Shown: piece by piece, positions 34,201 through 44,850 of the stretch | Position numbering within the stretch: the stretch's first letter is position 1 | Layout: each line of letters starts with the position of its first letter | DNA from: Escherichia phage LL11 | Sequence record: NC_048064.1 | Strand: one strand, 5' to 3' | Length of the DNA stretch: 45,185 nt | The notes under the pieces: model-generated | Seen by the model: only the letters and a program-made list of their open reading frames with translations | Databases searched by the model: none | What the model was told of the DNA's origin: nothing | Program-made: the position numbers and the translations under genes

Positions 34201-35086
34201 ACTATCTGGTTTTAAAGCAGTACAAGGTGGCTCAGAGAAGATTATAGCTCGCTCTATCAATAAGCGACTAAAGCAACATTTGATGGGGGAGCGACAGTTA
34301 CCCAAAGCAGATCTTGAAGAAGTTGGCCTAAGTGAAGATGTCATGAAGAGACTTAAGCGTCACTTTGATGATAACCCAATGTACGCTGATTACAAAGGTG
34401 AAAAAGTTCGTATGATGAACTTTGATGCTATGGAGCCAGACCTGAGAGAGACAGTGGGTGTTGCTGTGCGAAGAATGTCAGGACGTCTTATTCAGCGTAA
34501 CTTCATAGGAGATGAAGGTATCTGGATGAATAAATGGTGGGGCAAGGCATTGACCCAGTTTAAGTCATTCTCTATTGTCTCTATTGAGAAACAGCTAATC
34601 CATGATTTACGAGGAGATAAGATTCAGGCTGCACAGATCCTTGCATGGTCTACCTTACTAGGCTATGTATCTTATGCACTACAGATGCAGATGCAAGCAA
34701 TTGGTAGGGAGGATAGAGACAAGTTCTTGAGGGATAAGTTCGAGACACAGAATATCGCTATGGGTGTCTTTAATAAACTCCCACAAGTTGCAGGCTTCGG
34801 TCTTGCTGGTGATGCTTTGGCAACATTTGGCCTAATGCCAGACTCTATGATGCAAGCGCCTGGACGTATGGGGTTCCGTCAGCAAGGGTTTGGTGATTTG
34901 GTAGCAGGTGCTGGTGTAATCAGTGATACAGTTAATTTGTCACAAGCACTAGTTAAGTATGCCAACGGAGATGATGATGTCTCTACTCGGCAGTTGGTGG
35001 ACAAGGTTCGTCGCCTTGTTCCTTTGGCAAATACTATTGGTGTAGGTCAGATGACTAAAGCCAGTGTAGACTTATTGGAGGATTGA
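31283..35086 (+). CDS. internal virion protein C (gp16-like, ejection protein)
   Basis: 1267 aa, largest gene, conserved position before the tail-fibre genes. Confidence 0.8.
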   Translation: MVDSINQNWVAVTQRKLPPTFSQVAEAERKAEVQRANDKVFQTAIESEWALYGGQRAYERHTTEFAEQEGYEVPESTKDELSKLYGYEIAQDIVKNVKSPEELQFRMSNAAADKDRADILARNGFTGFSAQIAAGILDPVGWAASLVAAPVAGAVKVGRLGRIIKTAALSGAENAALEAVLAQGDYQRGVDDVLAAAGFGMIMGGTIGAATRERIASAGSRTAAERAEAVFDDLDTVVKGADEFDSSAARAVREAMEYDAYMAARNYEPLRAREVDADMAILSHTDNLKANASVRMSASEKGLLKKQIRQLEAEAATLKGKKIDAVAEAAAAKGAPKSAADRLDLDVQKKALARRFDEPLADLQARLDELNAKLSRANNVGKAKEELKRFSSLSREDQIKELGLDAPMRKVEMTRAVRDAVAAIRAERKKTPTEIHAEQAAEEVIKQKADDSIGAKRVEGSEIAGEQFDLSKNMEELMDDLAREAYQSEVRPINLKGLGSVSSVILNSENPVFRGLGLRLLENAQGGAYQGKTAAILSDVYGNLIRHAERNRYNDGFSQFIKDNNLRAVDYLNPATTRDFNNQIYTAIVRGIPEDTPRGVKLAAEGIADKLKKALEIRKQAGEHGFEDIQSAKDYIPVIYDGIKVTEAVNKLGSSEAVIHLLSKGYQTGKYKLGKKAADALAKVQYIRASDSTLSSRVAFDRVVSQQQQAQLIEDLKKAGVPDHIIDNFIEGTELAEMAESVSNRAKASMGINTQAEYGGLKVQDLLNTNVGELAENYGKEAAGGAALAAMGFPTRQSVLNAIDAAERAGRNMAGSNAKAIKQLRSEAEMLRDAVKLIYGNTIDADPNSGIVRGTRRVREITGLLRLGQMGFAQIPELARAISKMGLGTVLKSVPATKFLRSRAARKGGTAQGELLEPELREMEELLGYIGEDNWLTGWNVRHDEFGETADNLGKLSAIIDNGLAMGSRINTILSGFKAVQGGSEKIIARSINKRLKQHLMGERQLPKADLEEVGLSEDVMKRLKRHFDDNPMYADYKGEKVRMMNFDAMEPDLRETVGVAVRRMSGRLIQRNFIGDEGIWMNKWWGKALTQFKSFSIVSIEKQLIHDLRGDKIQAAQILAWSTLLGYVSYALQMQMQAIGREDRDKFLRDKFETQNIAMGVFNKLPQVAGFGLAGDALATFGLMPDSMMQAPGRMGFRQQGFGDLVAGAGVISDTVNLSQALVKYANGDDDVSTRQLVDKVRRLVPLANTIGVGQMTKASVDLLED

Positions 35087-36045
35087 TGAGTTACACATTC
35101 ACTGAACATACAGCGAATGGCACTCAAACTACTTTCCCCTTCCGGTTCGCTGGGAGAGACAAGGGGTACTTGAGGGCTTCTGATATTTTAGTTGAAGTAA
35201 GAAATGATGGCGTGTGGAACACAGTAAGTGGTTGGACACTTACAGGTACTAACCAGATAACCTTTAATGTACCGCCAGCGGCAAATACAAAACTTCGTAT
35301 CAGGCGCGTTGTAGAGAAAGAAGAACCTTACGCCGAGTTTGACCGTGGTGTAACCTTGGATATGAAATCTCTCAATAACTCCTTTATACATCTTTTGGAA
35401 GTATCTCAGGAGCTACTGGATGGTTTCTATCCAGATGGTTACTTTGTAAAGCAAGAGGTATCTTGGGGTGGACATAAGATTACTGATTTGGCTGATGGCA
35501 CAAATCCGGGAGATGCAGTAAATAAAGGACAGCTTGATTCCATCGACAAGAAGCATACAGATTGGAACGCCAAACAGGACATTGAGATTGCTGGTCTTAA
35601 AGCTGGTATGACTTCTGGTATTGCGCACAGAACTGTTCCTTGGTACACGATAGCCCAAGGTGGTGAGATTTCCGTAAAGCCCCCTTATGAATTTCAAGAT
35701 GCACTAGTTTTCCTTAATGGGGTATTACAGCACCAAATTGTAGGCGCATACTCTATAAGCAACAACACTATCACTTTCGCAGAGCCGCTTGTGGCTGGTA
35801 CAGAGGTGTATGTGTTGGTAGGTAGTCGTGTTGCTACATCTGAACCTAATATTCAGTTAGAGTTGAATTTTGACTTAGTAGAAGGCCAACAAGTAGTAAA
35901 GATTGGCTCTGCATTTAAGTATATTGAGGTTTATCTTGATGGACTATTACAACCTAAACTTACTTATCGGGTAGATGGTGACACTGTTACTTTCTCAGAG
36001 GGAGTGCCAGAATGCCGGATGACTGCTAAGATTATCACAGAATAA
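35086..36045 (+). CDS. tail fibre / tailspike adaptor protein (gp17 N-terminal domain-like)
   Basis: 319 aa; ATG 35086 overlapping the gp16-like stop; N-terminal region typical of T7 gp17-like tail attachment domains; no enzymatic domain. Confidence 0.75.
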   Translation: MSYTFTEHTANGTQTTFPFRFAGRDKGYLRASDILVEVRNDGVWNTVSGWTLTGTNQITFNVPPAANTKLRIRRVVEKEEPYAEFDRGVTLDMKSLNNSFIHLLEVSQELLDGFYPDGYFVKQEVSWGGHKITDLADGTNPGDAVNKGQLDSIDKKHTDWNAKQDIEIAGLKAGMTSGIAHRTVPWYTIAQGGEISVKPPYEFQDALVFLNGVLQHQIVGAYSISNNTITFAEPLVAGTEVYVLVGSRVATSEPNIQLELNFDLVEGQQVVKIGSAFKYIEVYLDGLLQPKLTYRVDGDTVTFSEGVPECRMTAKIITE

Positions 36046-38883: not shown

Positions 38884-39171
38884 ATGGCTAAATATGGTGA
38901 AGGTTCTGTTACTGGTCAGGCTTTTCGAGTAAAAGCAGTACAAACTATTGCAACGGCAATCCCGATGCCTGTTGTTAAAGAAGCAGACCTTAAGAGAAAA
39001 GATCACCCTATCAACATCAAACACCTGTCAGGTAAGCAGAAAGGTGCAATGGTTGCTCTTGAGAAAGATGACACAACCATGCATATTGCTGTTGCACGTG
39101 GCAGTGAACCCACAGACTCATGGGATGTAACTGGTATGGAAGAGGCCGCTGTTACTCCAGCAGGGGAATAA
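38884..39171 (+). CDS. hypothetical late protein, paralog B (95 aa)
   Basis: ATG 38884 with AAGGAGGAG RBS; tandem paralog of 38588-38866. Confidence 0.55.
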   Translation: MAKYGEGSVTGQAFRVKAVQTIATAIPMPVVKEADLKRKDHPINIKHLSGKQKGAMVALEKDDTTMHIAVARGSEPTDSWDVTGMEEAAVTPAGE

Positions 39172-39173
39172 TA

Positions 39174-39518
39174 ATGCTTAATAAATACTTCAAGCGTAAA
39201 GAGTTTGCTTGCCGTTGTGGGTGCGGTACATCTACTGTTGATGCTGAATTACTACAGGTAGTCACAGATGTGCGTGAGCACTTTGGTTCTCCTGTAGTTA
39301 TCACATCGGGACATCGCTGTATTAAGCACAATGCCAATGTAGGTGGAGCTAAGAACTCCATGCATCTTACTGGTAAGGCTGCTGACATTAAAGTGTCTGG
39401 CATATTACCTTCTGAAGTGCATAAGTATCTTACTAGCAAATACCAAGGCAAGTATGGTATCGGTAAGTATAACTCCTTCACTCACATCGATGTACGGGAT
39501 GGTTGTGCGCGATGGTAA
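39174..39518 (+). CDS. peptidase M15-type zinc peptidase (putative endolysin)
   Basis: 114 aa; SGHRC...N, GGAKNSMHLTGKAADI and HID blocks match the zinc ligands of M15/VanY-like cell-wall peptidases; N-terminal CxCGCG motif. Confidence 0.75.
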   Translation: MLNKYFKRKEFACRCGCGTSTVDAELLQVVTDVREHFGSPVVITSGHRCIKHNANVGGAKNSMHLTGKAADIKVSGILPSEVHKYLTSKYQGKYGIGKYNSFTHIDVRDGCARW

Positions 39519-40092: not shown

Positions 40093-40115
40093 ATTTACTG
40101 GACACTATAGAAGAG
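40093..40115 (+). promoter_or_regulatory. phage RNAP promoter for the tailspike genes (exact consensus)
   Basis: ATTTACTGGACACTATAGAAGAG followed by leader hairpin GCGCCGTTC-TTTT-GAGCGGC. Confidence 0.8.
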
Positions 40116-40194
40116 GTAAGATAGCGCCGTTCTTTTGAGCGGCCTATTACTAGCCAATCTTCATAGGGAGGGTTGGAAAGTAATAGGAGATAGC

Positions 40195-42093
40195 ATGGCT
40201 AAATTAACCAAACCTAATACTGAAGGAATCTTGCATAAAGGACAATCTTTGTATGAGTACCTTGATGCGAGAGTTTTAACATCAAAGCCGTTTGGTGCTG
40301 TAGGTGACGCCACTACTGATGATACTGTGGTTATAGCTGATTCATTAAACTCTCAGAAAGCTGTCACAGTCTCAGACGGTGTATTCTCTAGCTCTGGTAT
40401 TAATAGTAATTACTGTAACTTAGACGGCAGGGGTAGTGGCGTGCTAAGTCACCGTTCAAGTACAGGTAACTACTTAGTATTTAACAATCTACGTGCAGGT
40501 CGCTTAAGTAATATTACGGTAGAAAGTAATAAGGCGACTGATACAACTCAGGGACAGCAGGTCTCCCTTGCTGGTGGAAGTGATGTTACTGTAAGTGACG
40601 TTAACTTCTCAAACGTTAAAGGTACTGGTTTCAGTTTAATCGCATACCCTAATGATGCGCCACCGGATGGACTTATGATTAAAGGCATTCGAGGTAGCTA
40701 TTCCGGCTATGCTACTAATAAGGCAGCCGGATGCGTACTTGCTGACTCCTCAGTTAACTCCCTCATAGATAACGTCATTGCTAAGAACTACCCTCAGTTC
40801 GGAGCAGTAGAGTTGAAAGGTACAGCCAGTTACAACATAGTCAGTAATGTTATAGGGGCAGATTGCCAGCATGTAACTTACAACGGCACTGTAGGGTCAA
40901 TAGCTCCCTCTAATAACCTTATCAATGGGGTAGTGGCTAATAATCCTAAGTATGCAGCGGTTGTTGCAGGCAAAGGTAGTACGAACTTAATCTCAGACGT
41001 GCTCGTAGATTACTCAACTTCTGATGCGAGGCAGGCTCATGGTGTTACCGTAGAAGGGTCTGATAACGTCATAAATAATGTGCTTATGTCAGGGTGTGAT
41101 GGTACTAACTCTTTAGGACAAGGGCAGACTGCTATAATTGCACGCTTTATAGGTACAGCTAATAACAACTATGCGTCTGTATTTCCTAGCTACAGTGCTA
41201 CAGGTGTTATTACTTTCGAATCCGGCTCTACCCGTAACTTCGTAGAGGTAAAGCACCCGGGCAGGAGAAACGACCTTCTCAGCTCTGCTAGTACTATTGA
41301 CGGTGCAGCTACTATTGACGGCACTAATAATAGTAACGTAGTGCACGCACCTGCATTAGGGCAGTACATAGGTAGTATGTCAGGTAGGTTCGAATGGCGG
41401 ATTAAGTCCATGTCACTGCCTTCAGGCGTTCTTACTTCTGCTGATAAGTACAGAATGCTTGGGGATGGTGCTGTGTCATTAGCTGTAGGTGGAGGCACTT
41501 CTTCTCAAGTTCGCCTATTTACTTCTGATGGTACTTCTCGGACAGTGTCCCTCACCAACGGTAACGTGCGTCTTTCTACCAGTAGCACAGGCTATTTGCA
41601 GTTAGGTGCTGATGCAATGACCCCAGATAGTACTGGTACATACGCCTTAGGTTCCGCCAGTCGAGCATGGTCTGGCGGTTTTACTCAAGCAGCATTCACT
41701 GTTACCTCAGATGCTCGGTGTAAAACAGAACCTCTTACTATCTCAGATGCCTTACTGGATGCTTGGTCTGAAGTTGACTTTGTGCAGTTTCAGTATTTGG
41801 ATCGTGTTGAGGAGAAGGGTGCAGACTCAGCTAGATGGCACTTCGGTATCATCGCCCAGCGAGCTAAGGAGGCCTTCGAACGTCACGGTATAGATGCACA
41901 TCGCTATGGCTTCTTGTGCTTCGACAGTTGGGATGATGTATACGAGGAAGATGCCAATGGCTCTCGTAAACTGATTACACCAGCAGGTTCCCGCTACGGT
42001 ATTCGTTACGAGGAAGCACTGATATTAGAGGCTGCGTTGATGCGGCGGACTGTTAAGCGTATGCAGGAAGCACTAGCTTCCATGCCTAAGTAA
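40195..42093 (+). CDS. tailspike 1: beta-helix depolymerase with C-terminal intramolecular chaperone (peptidase S74-type) domain
   Basis: 632 aa from ATG 40195 (AGGAGA RBS); Ser/Thr/Gly/Asn-rich repetitive beta-helix middle; C-terminus SDARCK ... ARWHFGIIAQRAKEAFERHGIDAHRYGFLCFDSWDD matches the autoproteolytic chaperone module of endosialidase/K5-lyase-type tailspikes. Confidence 0.85.
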   Translation: MAKLTKPNTEGILHKGQSLYEYLDARVLTSKPFGAVGDATTDDTVVIADSLNSQKAVTVSDGVFSSSGINSNYCNLDGRGSGVLSHRSSTGNYLVFNNLRAGRLSNITVESNKATDTTQGQQVSLAGGSDVTVSDVNFSNVKGTGFSLIAYPNDAPPDGLMIKGIRGSYSGYATNKAAGCVLADSSVNSLIDNVIAKNYPQFGAVELKGTASYNIVSNVIGADCQHVTYNGTVGSIAPSNNLINGVVANNPKYAAVVAGKGSTNLISDVLVDYSTSDARQAHGVTVEGSDNVINNVLMSGCDGTNSLGQGQTAIIARFIGTANNNYASVFPSYSATGVITFESGSTRNFVEVKHPGRRNDLLSSASTIDGAATIDGTNNSNVVHAPALGQYIGSMSGRFEWRIKSMSLPSGVLTSADKYRMLGDGAVSLAVGGGTSSQVRLFTSDGTSRTVSLTNGNVRLSTSSTGYLQLGADAMTPDSTGTYALGSASRAWSGGFTQAAFTVTSDARCKTEPLTISDALLDAWSEVDFVQFQYLDRVEEKGADSARWHFGIIAQRAKEAFERHGIDAHRYGFLCFDSWDDVYEEDANGSRKLITPAGSRYGIRYEEALILEAALMRRTVKRMQEALASMPK

Positions 42094-42100
42094 GCAACAG

Positions 42101-42132
42101 GCAGTGCGTAAGCACTGCTTTTCACGCAACTT
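42101..42132 (+). terminator. rho-independent terminator between the two tailspike genes
   Basis: GCAGTGC-GTAA-GCACTGC stem-loop followed by TTTTCACGCAACTTTTCTT. Confidence 0.7.
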
Positions 42133-42178
42133 TTCTTAAAGGTTATCATGGTGGTAGCCTTTCAGAAAAGGAGGTTAC

Positions 42179-43891
42179 ATGCTTCAAAGATTAAGTGCTT
42201 ACTTGGTGAAGTACAAGAGTAAACTAACAGGTACTATTGAGCGCCTGCTATCTGATAAACTATCGGATACAATAGATGTTGCGGATTTTGGAGTTAATCC
42301 CTCTTCTAATGACAACAGGCGAGCCCTTCAAGCTGCATTCAATGCGGTCAGATTGCTAGGCGGTGGTACTGTATCAGTCACTAAAGCTGGCGAATATAAA
42401 CTCAGTGGCACTGTTGAGATATTTGCTAATACACACTTCAAGGTTGCTAAAGGTGTAACATTTGTACGTGACTACGAAACAGGAGATACGCTATTCAGAT
42501 TATCACAAGGGCAAGCTAGTAATGTAACAGTCAGTGGAGGTGTCTATGAAGGCAATGGTCACACTAAAGGGGATACACCTTTTGTAGTATTTGCATCTAC
42601 TAGTAATAATGATTTGAAGTTTGAAGGCATAACAGTTAACAATGTAGTGGACTACCACGCCATAGATTTAGCAGATTGGAACAACGTAGTTATTCGTGAT
42701 TGTAAATTCCTAGGGTTTAAGAATACAGGCAGTCGTAACTTCTCAGAGGCTATACAGTTAGACCCAGGTCTTATTACAGTTGGTCACTATGTACAGTCAA
42801 GCGGTATGCTGGTGGAGAATTGCTATGCTGGTCCAAACCCAGAATCCGGGTTTGGGGGTTATGGTGCACTAATCGGAAATCACGCCTCAGCTTATGGTGT
42901 ACAGGACAACAATATCCGTATCTTGAATTGCACTACAGATGGTGCTCTCTTTGCAGGTGTACGTGTATTTAACTGGAAAAACTGGACAGTACGTGGTTGC
43001 ACCTTTAGAAACTCTAATGCAAGGGGTGTTCATGTTACACCTGTCTCCTCTCAAACTAAACCGCAAGGGACTCGACAAGGTAGTGTTGTAGATTGTACTT
43101 TTGATGGCGTAAGAACACCAGTGCTAATTGCTGCACCATCTTGGCCTTTTACCGATATTAGTGACATTTGGCATGACCATATTGAAATTTCTAATAATAC
43201 TATGATCCTCACAGAGGATGTATCCTATGGTGTAGATGCAAGGTGGTGTAAGAATTTAATTGTAAAAGGTAATACAGGCTCTGGTGGCTTAGGGTTAATC
43301 GGTTTACGCTTTGGGACAAAATACCACATCGAAGGTAATACTTGGGAAAACGGAAGAGGTAGTGGGATTTGGTTAGGTGAGTCTGATGCTACTACATTCA
43401 TTGGTACTGGTTTATCAGGAGAAGGTATACTTAGTCGTAATATCTTCTCTAAATTAGGGCAATATGGTATTCATGTAAACTGCAAGGCTAGCGGTCTAGT
43501 GGTTAAAGCTAATAATATGAAGGAAGTATCTACCGCTGAAGCAGGTAGACACTTCATTAGTATAGACACAGGAGCTAACAACATCCTAGTAGAAGGTAAT
43601 ATTGGAGTAGATGGAGAGAGCCTTAACAAGCCAAGCCTTGGTATTCGTGTTACTTCTTCTTGCTCCAATATTAAACTAATTGGCAATGATTGCTATGGTA
43701 CGCAAGCACCTCAGAATAACCAAGGGGTCGGTTCTAGTACGGTGATTGTCTATGGACTAAATGGCAATCCTACAACTTTAGGTGTAGGTGCACCTGTCGG
43801 TTCTTTGGCAACGGATATTAATGGGTCTGGTGGTAGTACATTGTACATTAAAGAATCTGGTACATCTGCTCAAGGTTGGGTTGCAAAGTAG
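42179..43891 (+). CDS. tailspike 2: second beta-helix (pectate-lyase-fold-like) receptor-binding protein
   Basis: 570 aa; AAAAGGAGG RBS; repetitive Gly/Asn/Val/Thr-rich sequence with Asn ladders typical of right-handed beta-helix depolymerases; no C-terminal chaperone module. Confidence 0.8.
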   Translation: MLQRLSAYLVKYKSKLTGTIERLLSDKLSDTIDVADFGVNPSSNDNRRALQAAFNAVRLLGGGTVSVTKAGEYKLSGTVEIFANTHFKVAKGVTFVRDYETGDTLFRLSQGQASNVTVSGGVYEGNGHTKGDTPFVVFASTSNNDLKFEGITVNNVVDYHAIDLADWNNVVIRDCKFLGFKNTGSRNFSEAIQLDPGLITVGHYVQSSGMLVENCYAGPNPESGFGGYGALIGNHASAYGVQDNNIRILNCTTDGALFAGVRVFNWKNWTVRGCTFRNSNARGVHVTPVSSQTKPQGTRQGSVVDCTFDGVRTPVLIAAPSWPFTDISDIWHDHIEISNNTMILTEDVSYGVDARWCKNLIVKGNTGSGGLGLIGLRFGTKYHIEGNTWENGRGSGIWLGESDATTFIGTGLSGEGILSRNIFSKLGQYGIHVNCKASGLVVKANNMKEVSTAEAGRHFISIDTGANNILVEGNIGVDGESLNKPSLGIRVTSSCSNIKLIGNDCYGTQAPQNNQGVGSSTVIVYGLNGNPTTLGVGAPVGSLATDINGSGGSTLYIKESGTSAQGWVAK

Positions 43892-43902: not shown

Positions 43903-44052
43903 ATGCCCTTAATCAAATCAGTTAAGCAAAGTGCTGTACGTCAGAACACAGAGGAACTTATTCAATCAGGACGTGACCCTAAGCAAGCCTATGCGATTGC
44001 CAAGGATGTACAACGTCGTGCCATGAAGAAACCTTCTGCATCTTCTGCGTAA
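43903..44052 (+). CDS. hypothetical small basic protein (49 aa)
   Basis: ATG 43903 with AGGAGG RBS; MPLIKSVKQSAVRQNTEELIQSGRDPKQAYAIAKDVQRRAMKKPSASSA. Confidence 0.35.
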   Translation: MPLIKSVKQSAVRQNTEELIQSGRDPKQAYAIAKDVQRRAMKKPSASSA

Positions 44053-44078: not shown

Positions 44079-44540
44079 GTGGAAATTTGGAGGCCTATTG
44101 CTGGTATACCAGATTACATGGTTTCCTCCTTTGGTCGTGTTAGATCTCATAAAAGAGGTAAGGTTACTATACTAAACCCTCCGCACGACAAAGGAGGTTA
44201 TCGTAATGTTGTGCTACGTGCTAATGGTGAAAAGATAAATCGCAAGGTACATAGGCTTGTGGCAGAGGCTTTCTTACCTAATCCTCGCGGTCTACCTCAA
44301 GTAAATCACAAGGATGAAGTAAGAGACAATAATCATGTAAGTAATCTGGAGTGGTGTGATTGTGCATACAACGTAGATTACTCTCAAGCAGCTACTTATA
44401 TTGTGATGTGCCCTAAAGGTAATATATTAGTAGTAAGGAATGTGGCTAAGTTTTGTAGGGAAAACGGATTAAGCAGTGGTTCTTTTACAGATATGCTTAA
44501 GGGAAGACGTAAGCAACATAAGGGTTATCGCTTAGTGTAA
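44079..44540 (+). CDS. HNH homing endonuclease (paralog 3 of 3)
   Basis: GTG 44079 5 nt after AGGAGG; MEIWRPIAGIPDYMVSSFGRVRS, HRLVAEAF, NHKD...NNH..NLEW, C-terminal QHKGY; last gene before the terminal region. Confidence 0.8.
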   Translation: MEIWRPIAGIPDYMVSSFGRVRSHKRGKVTILNPPHDKGGYRNVVLRANGEKINRKVHRLVAEAFLPNPRGLPQVNHKDEVRDNNHVSNLEWCDCAYNVDYSQAATYIVMCPKGNILVVRNVAKFCRENGLSSGSFTDMLKGRRKQHKGYRLV

Positions 44541-44640: not shown

Positions 44641-44822
44641 CTGAGGGAATCCGTCTTCGACGGGCAGGGCTGATGTACTCCTTGGATAGTACAAGGGAGG
44701 CCGAGGGAGCGCCTAGGACGGCCTAGGGAATGGCTTAGTGGTGGACAAGGTGATTACCTTAGTGAAGCCTCTTAGTGCATTCCTGAGGCTATTCAGGGCC
44801 ATTCCTGAGTGTTTGACAGGGT

Positions 44823-44850
44823 GGGGGAGGGGGGGGGGGAGGGGCGTGGG
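44823..44850 (+). repeat. G-rich tract with an 11-nt poly-G run
   Basis: GGGGGAGGGGGGGGGGGAGGGGCGTGGG in the terminal non-coding region. Confidence 0.8.

Follow-up and report, generated by a model that had tools for sequence, protein, structure and literature searches.

Probable exchangeable two-slot tailspike cassette of a K1-5-like coliphage, with a K5 capsule lyase and a candidate K2-capsule spike

The interval 40093-43891 of the genome of Escherichia phage LL11 (NC_048064.1; the whole 45,185-nucleotide stretch that was analysed is called the window) is, taken as a whole, best explained as an exchangeable two-slot receptor-recognition cassette of a K1-5-like (Vectrevirus) coliphage, a reading to which we assign a probability of about 75%. 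The first slot is occupied by gene A, the K5 capsule lyase, and the second by gene B, a candidate K2-specific spike that recognises and probably degrades the Escherichia coli K2 capsule, a proposal that we hold at slightly better than even odds. The two-tailspike architecture and the first enzyme are already known and present in many deposited genomes, and the module is textbook phage biology; the only fresh element is a testable hypothesis on the specificity of the second spike. The features used in the argument are listed below, with coordinates in the window.

35083-36045, + strand: adapter protein gene, K1-5 gp37-like, an open reading frame (ORF) of 320 amino acids (PHROG 2710, Pfam Phage_T7_tail)
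40093-40113, + strand: phage RNA polymerase promoter of SP6/K1-5 type, ATTTACTGGACACTATAGAAG, a perfect consensus match
40195-42093, + strand: gene A, by sequence the K5 capsule (heparosan) lyase KflA/gp46, 632 amino acids (2x3h, K1-5 gp46, PHROG 14895)
40195-40215, + strand: codons of MAKLTKP, the docking heptapeptide of spike 1, identical to that of K1-5 gp46
41707-42090, + strand: Ser505 cleavage position and C-terminal intramolecular chaperone of gene A (Peptidase_S74, Pfam PF13884)
42099-42120, + strand: 9-bp hairpin with a GTAA loop in the spacer, with TT CACG after it, a possible weak terminator or 3' stabiliser
42179-42211, + strand: codons of MLQRLSAYLVK, the slot-2 docking undecapeptide, 7/11 identical to MIQRLGSSLVK of K1-5 gp47
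42179-43891, + strand: gene B, second tailspike, 570 amino acids, a right-handed beta-helix without chaperone domain and candidate K2-capsule spike (Pfam Beta_helix, AlphaFold2)
43903-44052, + strand: 49-amino-acid ORF, homologue of K1-5 gp48 (47/49 identical; PHROG 2423), the conserved right edge of the cassette

Nucleotide comparison of the 3.8-kb region identified the window as the genome of a Vectrevirus, a K1-5/SP6-like podophage of the Autographiviridae, subfamily Molineuxvirinae. Among 100 matching phage records, at least 16 Vectrevirus records covered the region in full at 96-98% nucleotide identity, and the carriers of the full-length pair include EEc4, EEc2, 6948/6949, EC120, LI10_P3-P5, vB_EcoP-101101UKE1, vKMB47, Sem1-4 and vB_Ec-G9; most of these records annotate both spike genes merely as hypothetical proteins. 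For K1-5, AAPEc6, VEc3, ULINTec7 and the original phage K5 fragment the match was limited to the first 55-56% of the query, which corresponds to gene A, the spacer and the first ~50 nt of gene B. Along the alignment with K1-5, identity was 93-100% through the spacer, dropped to 33-67% from around codon 20 of gene B onward (within ~60 nt of the start codon) and recovered to 87-100% from just before the gp48-like ORF. The GC content of gene B is 41.4% as compared with 45.1% for the window. In the comparison with T147P9, the promoter at 40093 and the 5' untranslated region were kept and identity collapsed where the first spike begins, which in T147P9 is an unrelated protein with the N-terminal sequence MARLTRP. 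Given that identity breaks in slot 2 against K1-5 and in slot 1 against T147P9, both slots appear to be independently exchangeable, and the sharp edges of the cassette mark the points at which slot 2 can receive another spike.

Both spike genes are intact in the window, in contrast to two of its relatives. EEc4, the closest relative, lacks 1 nt in a CCC run within its K5 lyase gene (position ~4139, equal to ~41231 in the window), which causes a frameshift so that the gene is annotated as two coding sequences; the deletion reflects either genuine decay of slot 1 or an error in sequencing. In the deposited record of vKMB47, gene B contains a duplicated stretch of 55 nt. The first-pass annotation had described two different depolymerases and named a truncated remnant as one finding that would speak against this; neither spike gene is truncated, and gene B aligns end to end with its homologues, including a conserved C-terminal GWVAK.

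Gene A starts with an ATG preceded by AGGAG. A 652-amino-acid ORF beginning with TTG was rejected as an upstream extension, and the ATG at 40195 was preferred as it yields the known anchor heptapeptide. The predicted protein is identical to K1-5 gp46 at 618/632 positions (97.8% at the amino acid level), and the length of 632 amino acids that had previously been likened to that of the K5 lyase is indeed that of K1-5 gp46. Over residues 1-505, 491/505 positions are identical to 2x3h, the KflA of phage K5A (1049 bits), and this identity spans the catalytic beta-helix and the triple-helix stalk of the solved enzyme; the 14 substitutions are conservative or of surface type. Residues 31-632 could be aligned with 9vvr, a K5 lyase fibre of T7 type, and PHROG 14895 covers the full length. 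Positions 206, 208 and 229 are Glu, Lys and Tyr, unchanged compared with 2x3h, and these we take to be the catalytic residues of K5 lyase; their roles reportedly come from the KflA structure of Thompson in 2010. Judged by its sequence, gene A is the K5 heparosan lyase KflA, and the mature spike would degrade the K5 heparosan capsule by beta-elimination.

The first spike had also been described as ending in the conserved self-cleaving chaperone module, and this was borne out. Peptidase_S74 (PF13884) matched residues 505-565 with 54.4 bits against a cut-off of 22 (E = 1.6e-14), and the gene A segment TSDARCKTE aligns with TANGERKTE of the endoNF chaperone 3gw6 as well as with SDERHKTD in the opening part of 3gud, a chaperone fragment of phi29 gp12. 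In the alignment with 3gw6, S505 and K510 fall opposite the alanine of the S911A variant and a lysine, i.e. a serine at the cleavage position and a lysine five residues on; Ser505/Lys510 would presumably be the counterparts of Ser911/Lys916 in endoNF. The crystallised K5 lyase chain (2x3h) stops exactly at Ser505, as is expected if the chaperone is released there. The S74 domain is thus predicted to aid trimerisation of gene A and then to cut itself off after Ser505.

The adapter on which the two spikes would be mounted is encoded upstream of the cassette. Residues 1-319 of this ORF matched the PHROG 2710 tail fiber profile, with the match confined to the N-terminal 322/781 profile positions (E = 2.5e-144), and the Pfam Phage_T7_tail N-terminal domain was found with E = 8e-12. 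The ORF fits the K1-5/SP6 type of adapter, which is short (~300 amino acids) and has a T7 gp17-like N-terminal domain but no receptor-binding domain. In the established virion model each adapter bears both kinds of spike, one of each. The adapter gp37 of K1-5 offers two sites, and the spikes attach to them through their short N-terminal peptides (Leiman 2007, as summarised in PMC6872550). By analogy, the K5 lyase would dock on the adapter (35083-36045) through MAKLTKP in slot 1, and gene B would dock through MLQRLSAYLVK on the second adapter site, which in K1-5 is occupied by the endosialidase. A virion built in this way would carry two different spikes and be able to attack two surface polysaccharides.

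Gene B has GGAGG 5 nt upstream of its start. The protein matched Pfam Beta_helix above the curated cut-off, and the AlphaFold2 model is confident (pLDDT 88), with disorder confined to the first ~20 residues; its body is a right-handed parallel beta-helix, and no S74 domain was found in it in the Pfam search. The earlier description of two unrelated beta-helix enzymes therefore stands in so far as the spikes are beta-helix proteins unrelated in sequence and the first is the K5 lyase; the enzymatic activity of gene B is one that we infer. Its body recurs at 45-51% identity behind other anchors, namely the P22 head-binding domain and the CBA120 TSP-N domain, which is the usual modularity of tailspikes. 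An example is a P22-like prophage tailspike in E. coli GCA_017038635.1 (4001-6079 of the retrieved stretch), made up of a head-binding domain and a body that is 47% identical to gene B; this prophage tailspike was present in 24/5426 complete E. coli genomes, several of them named O25b:H4-ST131. At 47% identity the prophage homologue says little on the specificity of gene B. The spikes of some Bacillus, Staphylococcus, Streptomyces and Arthrobacter phages are more remotely related, and SPO1 gp18.3 is among these spikes of phages of Gram-positive hosts.

The closest solved fold, and the only clear solved sequence relative, is the beta-helix of Streptococcus pneumoniae PfbA (3zpp, 4mr0), which was matched by the gene B family profile with E = 1e-45. 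Both proteins have the motifs HAID, SEAIQ-P and GNH, but PfbA is a cell-wall-anchored bacterial adhesin and not a phage spike, and is ~22% identical to gene B. To our knowledge PfbA has no enzymatic activity. Gene B could be a binding-only spike, an adhesin without depolymerase activity, so that the phage would have one enzyme and one lectin-like fibre, and the catalytic residues of gene B are not assignable by homology. We regard this as very unlikely, since six positions, H160, D163, E190, Q193, D195 and H235, are strictly conserved in the gene B homologues of different phage types and lie in the motifs DYHAID, SEAIQLDPG and GNHA, and such conserved acidic and histidine positions suggest an active site. 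Moreover, vKMB47 formed haloed plaques, on a plating strain that the paper does not state, and CFT073, a K2 strain, served for its propagation (PMC11162368), and PhageDPO rated the Sem homologues of gene B as depolymerases at 96-99% (PMC13005862). An enzyme acting on a capsule is the preferred reading of gene B.

The proposed target is K2, a group 2 E. coli capsule that is a teichoic-acid-like galactosyl-glycerol-phosphate polymer. It is often met with on E. coli from urine and the bloodstream, including uropathogens such as CFT073 and many ST131 strains. The host-range figures given here and below were taken from the preprint interaction and strain tables of Gaborieau et al., in which the K types are in-silico calls, and apply to the phages and strains as they appear in that preprint. 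The four LI10 phages, which have the K5 lyase together with gene B, were isolated on LI10, a strain typed O25:H4, ST131, K2. In a separate study vKMB47 was propagated on the K2 strain CFT073 with a score of 4, whereas vKMB14, with the K5 lyase and another spike, scored 0 on CFT073 (PMC11162368). In the T147 Vectreviruses gene B (97% identical) follows another first spike, one that is not a lyase. T147_P9 scored at least 1 on 9/10 in-silico K2 strains as compared with 28/391 other strains (Fisher's Exact Test, p = 2e-9), and when the O6 strains were left out the association remained (p = 6e-9). The positive K2 strains span O1, O4, O6, O25, O75, O107 and O-negative, i.e. seven O-type classes. 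The T205 and PDP21 Vectreviruses, which have the K5 lyase and other second spikes, scored 0 on 10/10 K2 strains. The Kayfunavirus T147_P5, from the same host, scored 0 on six of the seven positive non-O6 K2 strains and 1 on ECOR-66; no Kayfunavirus record in the phage collection matched gene B, on the assumption that T147_P5 is present in that collection. The remaining positives of the T147 phages were mostly O6 strains, plus rough laboratory strains.

Several observations weigh against a K2 specificity. Most of the K2 scores are of the weakest grade (1), with only ECOR-66, LI10, NILS65 and NILS74 at 2-4, and the K2 strain NILS75 scored 0. In addition to the in-silico nature of the K types, the panel figures come from the T147 phages and not from the exact spike pair of the window, and the effect of gene B in the T147 phages cannot be separated from that of their own first spike. 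EC120, which has the same pair as the window, was isolated on ECOR-4, an O-negative strain without an ABC capsule, and Sem4 was isolated on Klebsiella aerogenes (PMC13005862). The closest solved relative is an adhesin and the next ones are uronate epimerases and lyases, while K2 has no uronic acid. Finally, gene B in the deposited vKMB47 record is frameshifted after 53 codons by the 55-nt tandem duplication (2704-2758, equal to ~42282 in the window), which matters because the growth of vKMB47 on CFT073 is part of the K2 argument; the duplication is probably an assembly artefact, given that 55 nt is a usual k-mer overlap of assemblers.

Gene B might instead target a surface glycan other than K2, with the K2 signal being indirect; candidates are an O antigen (O6 or O25b, for example), a different group 2 capsule, for instance the cluster called '5' for want of a name, and a widespread glycan. 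The T147 phages also scored on 15/21 O6 strains and on two O25:H4 ST131 strains typed '5', the gene B body has homologues on P22-like prophage tailspikes, which as a class mostly read O antigen, several of the genomes with the prophage homologue being, as mentioned above, named O25b:H4-ST131, and the growth of EC120 on a strain without ABC capsule points in the same direction. We nevertheless consider this explanation unlikely. The spread of the positive K2 strains over seven O-type classes argues against an O antigen, many O25 strains were negative (ECOR-15, ECOR-52, ECOR-54, NILS01, NILS12, NILS19, DIJ06 and LM33), and LI10 and CFT073 have K2 in common but differ in O type. The Kayfunavirus T147_P5, for which the search yielded no gene B homologue, gave the O6 signal too, and the T147 phages' own first spike accounts for that signal better. 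On this strain pattern O25 and O6 were set aside as targets of gene B.

The slot-1 spike of T147P9 and T147P1 (1023-2915 of the retrieved stretches) has 630 amino acids, the MARLTRP anchor, a weak beta-helix match and no S74 domain, and the host range of 15/21 O6 strains suggests that it is O6-specific. Two further patterns appear in Supplementary Table 3 of Gaborieau et al.: T147_P1, unlike its sister phages, scores weakly (1-2) on around a dozen K1 strains, and all T147 phages, including the Kayfunavirus, have weak scores on the same subset of K5 strains. Spike content explains neither of these patterns.

A K2 capsule specificity of gene B remains the reading that we prefer. The pairing itself has been noted before: vKMB47 was described as having the K5 lyase and a second spike common to 101101UKE1 (Markusková et al., PMC11162368), and the same two predicted depolymerases were described in the Sem phages (PMC13005862), but a substrate for the second spike was assigned in neither paper. 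In the literature searched we found descriptive mentions of the second spike but no named specificity and no K2 depolymerase gene, and a paper on K2/CFT073 phages (PMC12488582) does not treat the gene B protein. In its fuller form the proposal is that gene B is a K2-capsule coliphage spike and the first molecularly identified K2-acting enzyme, belonging to a family with PfbA and the Gram-positive-phage spikes and possibly using a non-classical cleavage chemistry; the chances of this we put at evens. If true, a phage with dual K5 and K2 specificity, or the gene B protein itself, would be useful for capsule typing, in phage-therapy cocktails and as an anti-virulence enzyme.

With regard to expression, the first-pass annotation had placed a dedicated promoter ahead of the two spike genes, and a perfect phage-polymerase promoter is present at 40093-40113. 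The SP6/K1-5-type consensus had 13 matches in the window, all on the + strand, compared with 0.08 expected by chance, and the copy ahead of gene A is one of five perfect ones. A consensus scan found no further copy from 40113 to the end of the window, and transcription of gene B and the downstream ORFs has to start from the 40093 promoter or from others lying still further upstream. This single phage-polymerase promoter would then transcribe both gene A and gene B, with gene B being expressed by read-through of the hairpin.

A terminator that would lower transcription of gene B had been suggested between the spikes. The spacer between genes A and B is 85 nt long (42094-42178), and the hairpin in it is real and conserved: its folding energy lies between -15.4 and -15.6 kcal/mol (z between -3.2 and -3.7 compared with shuffled sequences), and its sequence is identical in K1-5 and EEc4. 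The stable stem is followed by a run of 4 T, which falls short of the rule used in the terminator scan (at least 5 T in 8 nt), and the hairpin was not flagged as a + strand terminator. Since gene B, the gp48-like ORF and the downstream HNH endonuclease gene have no promoter of their own, substantial read-through of the hairpin is obligatory, and it can be a partial terminator at most. Stabilising the message or forming part of a recombination joint are equally plausible roles, and we see an even chance that, rather than tuning the spike ratio by termination, it serves chiefly to stabilise the 3' end of the lyase message or simply belongs to an 85-nt slot-2 recombination joint. In favour of this are the short T-run and the negative scan, the contrast with the hairpin after the capsid gene, which has 11 bp followed by TTCTTTTGTTT, the lack of a downstream promoter for the three genes, and the fact that the spacer is near-identical among phages with different slot-2 genes, with sequence identity breaking just after it. 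On the other hand, a stable GC-rich hairpin with U residues after it can make polymerases of T7 type pause or, in part, terminate. Sigma-70-like hexamers at 42121-42149 in the spacer were rejected as a promoter candidate, being at chance level (11 found compared with 13.3 expected).

Some neighbouring features were also recorded. An ORF at 39171-39518 (+ strand), upstream of the spike promoter, resembles zinc D-Ala-D-Ala carboxypeptidase/endolysin proteins (motifs SGHRC...H...D), and the interval from the terminase gene to the spikes has a gene content unlike that of EEc4 and K1-5. The HNH homing endonuclease ORF at 44079-44540 (+ strand; 153 amino acids, GC 40%) has NUMOD4, HNH_3 and I-HmuI NUMOD-like domains and sits between the gp48-like and gp49-like ORFs; among 89 related phage records only vB_Ec-G9 has it at the same site, and the others match the flanks only. 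At the non-coding right end of the genome there is a G-rich tract, GGGTGGGGGAGGGGGGGGGGGAGGGGCGTGGG, at 44820-44850, followed by repeated CTTAGT(N) motifs toward the terminus.

The closest known system is that of phage K1-5, whose dual tailspikes were reportedly described by Scholl in 2001. The gp46/gp47 cassette of K1-5 shares with that of the window its promoter, the K5 lyase in slot 1, the 85-nt spacer with the hairpin and the docking peptides, and in both genomes an adapter gene (gp37 in K1-5) lies upstream and a gp48-like ORF downstream of the cassette. The window differs from K1-5 in having an additional gene, for an HNH endonuclease, inserted behind the gp48-like ORF, and in that slot 2, which in K1-5 contains an 811-amino-acid K1 endosialidase, contains a beta-helix spike of 570 amino acids.

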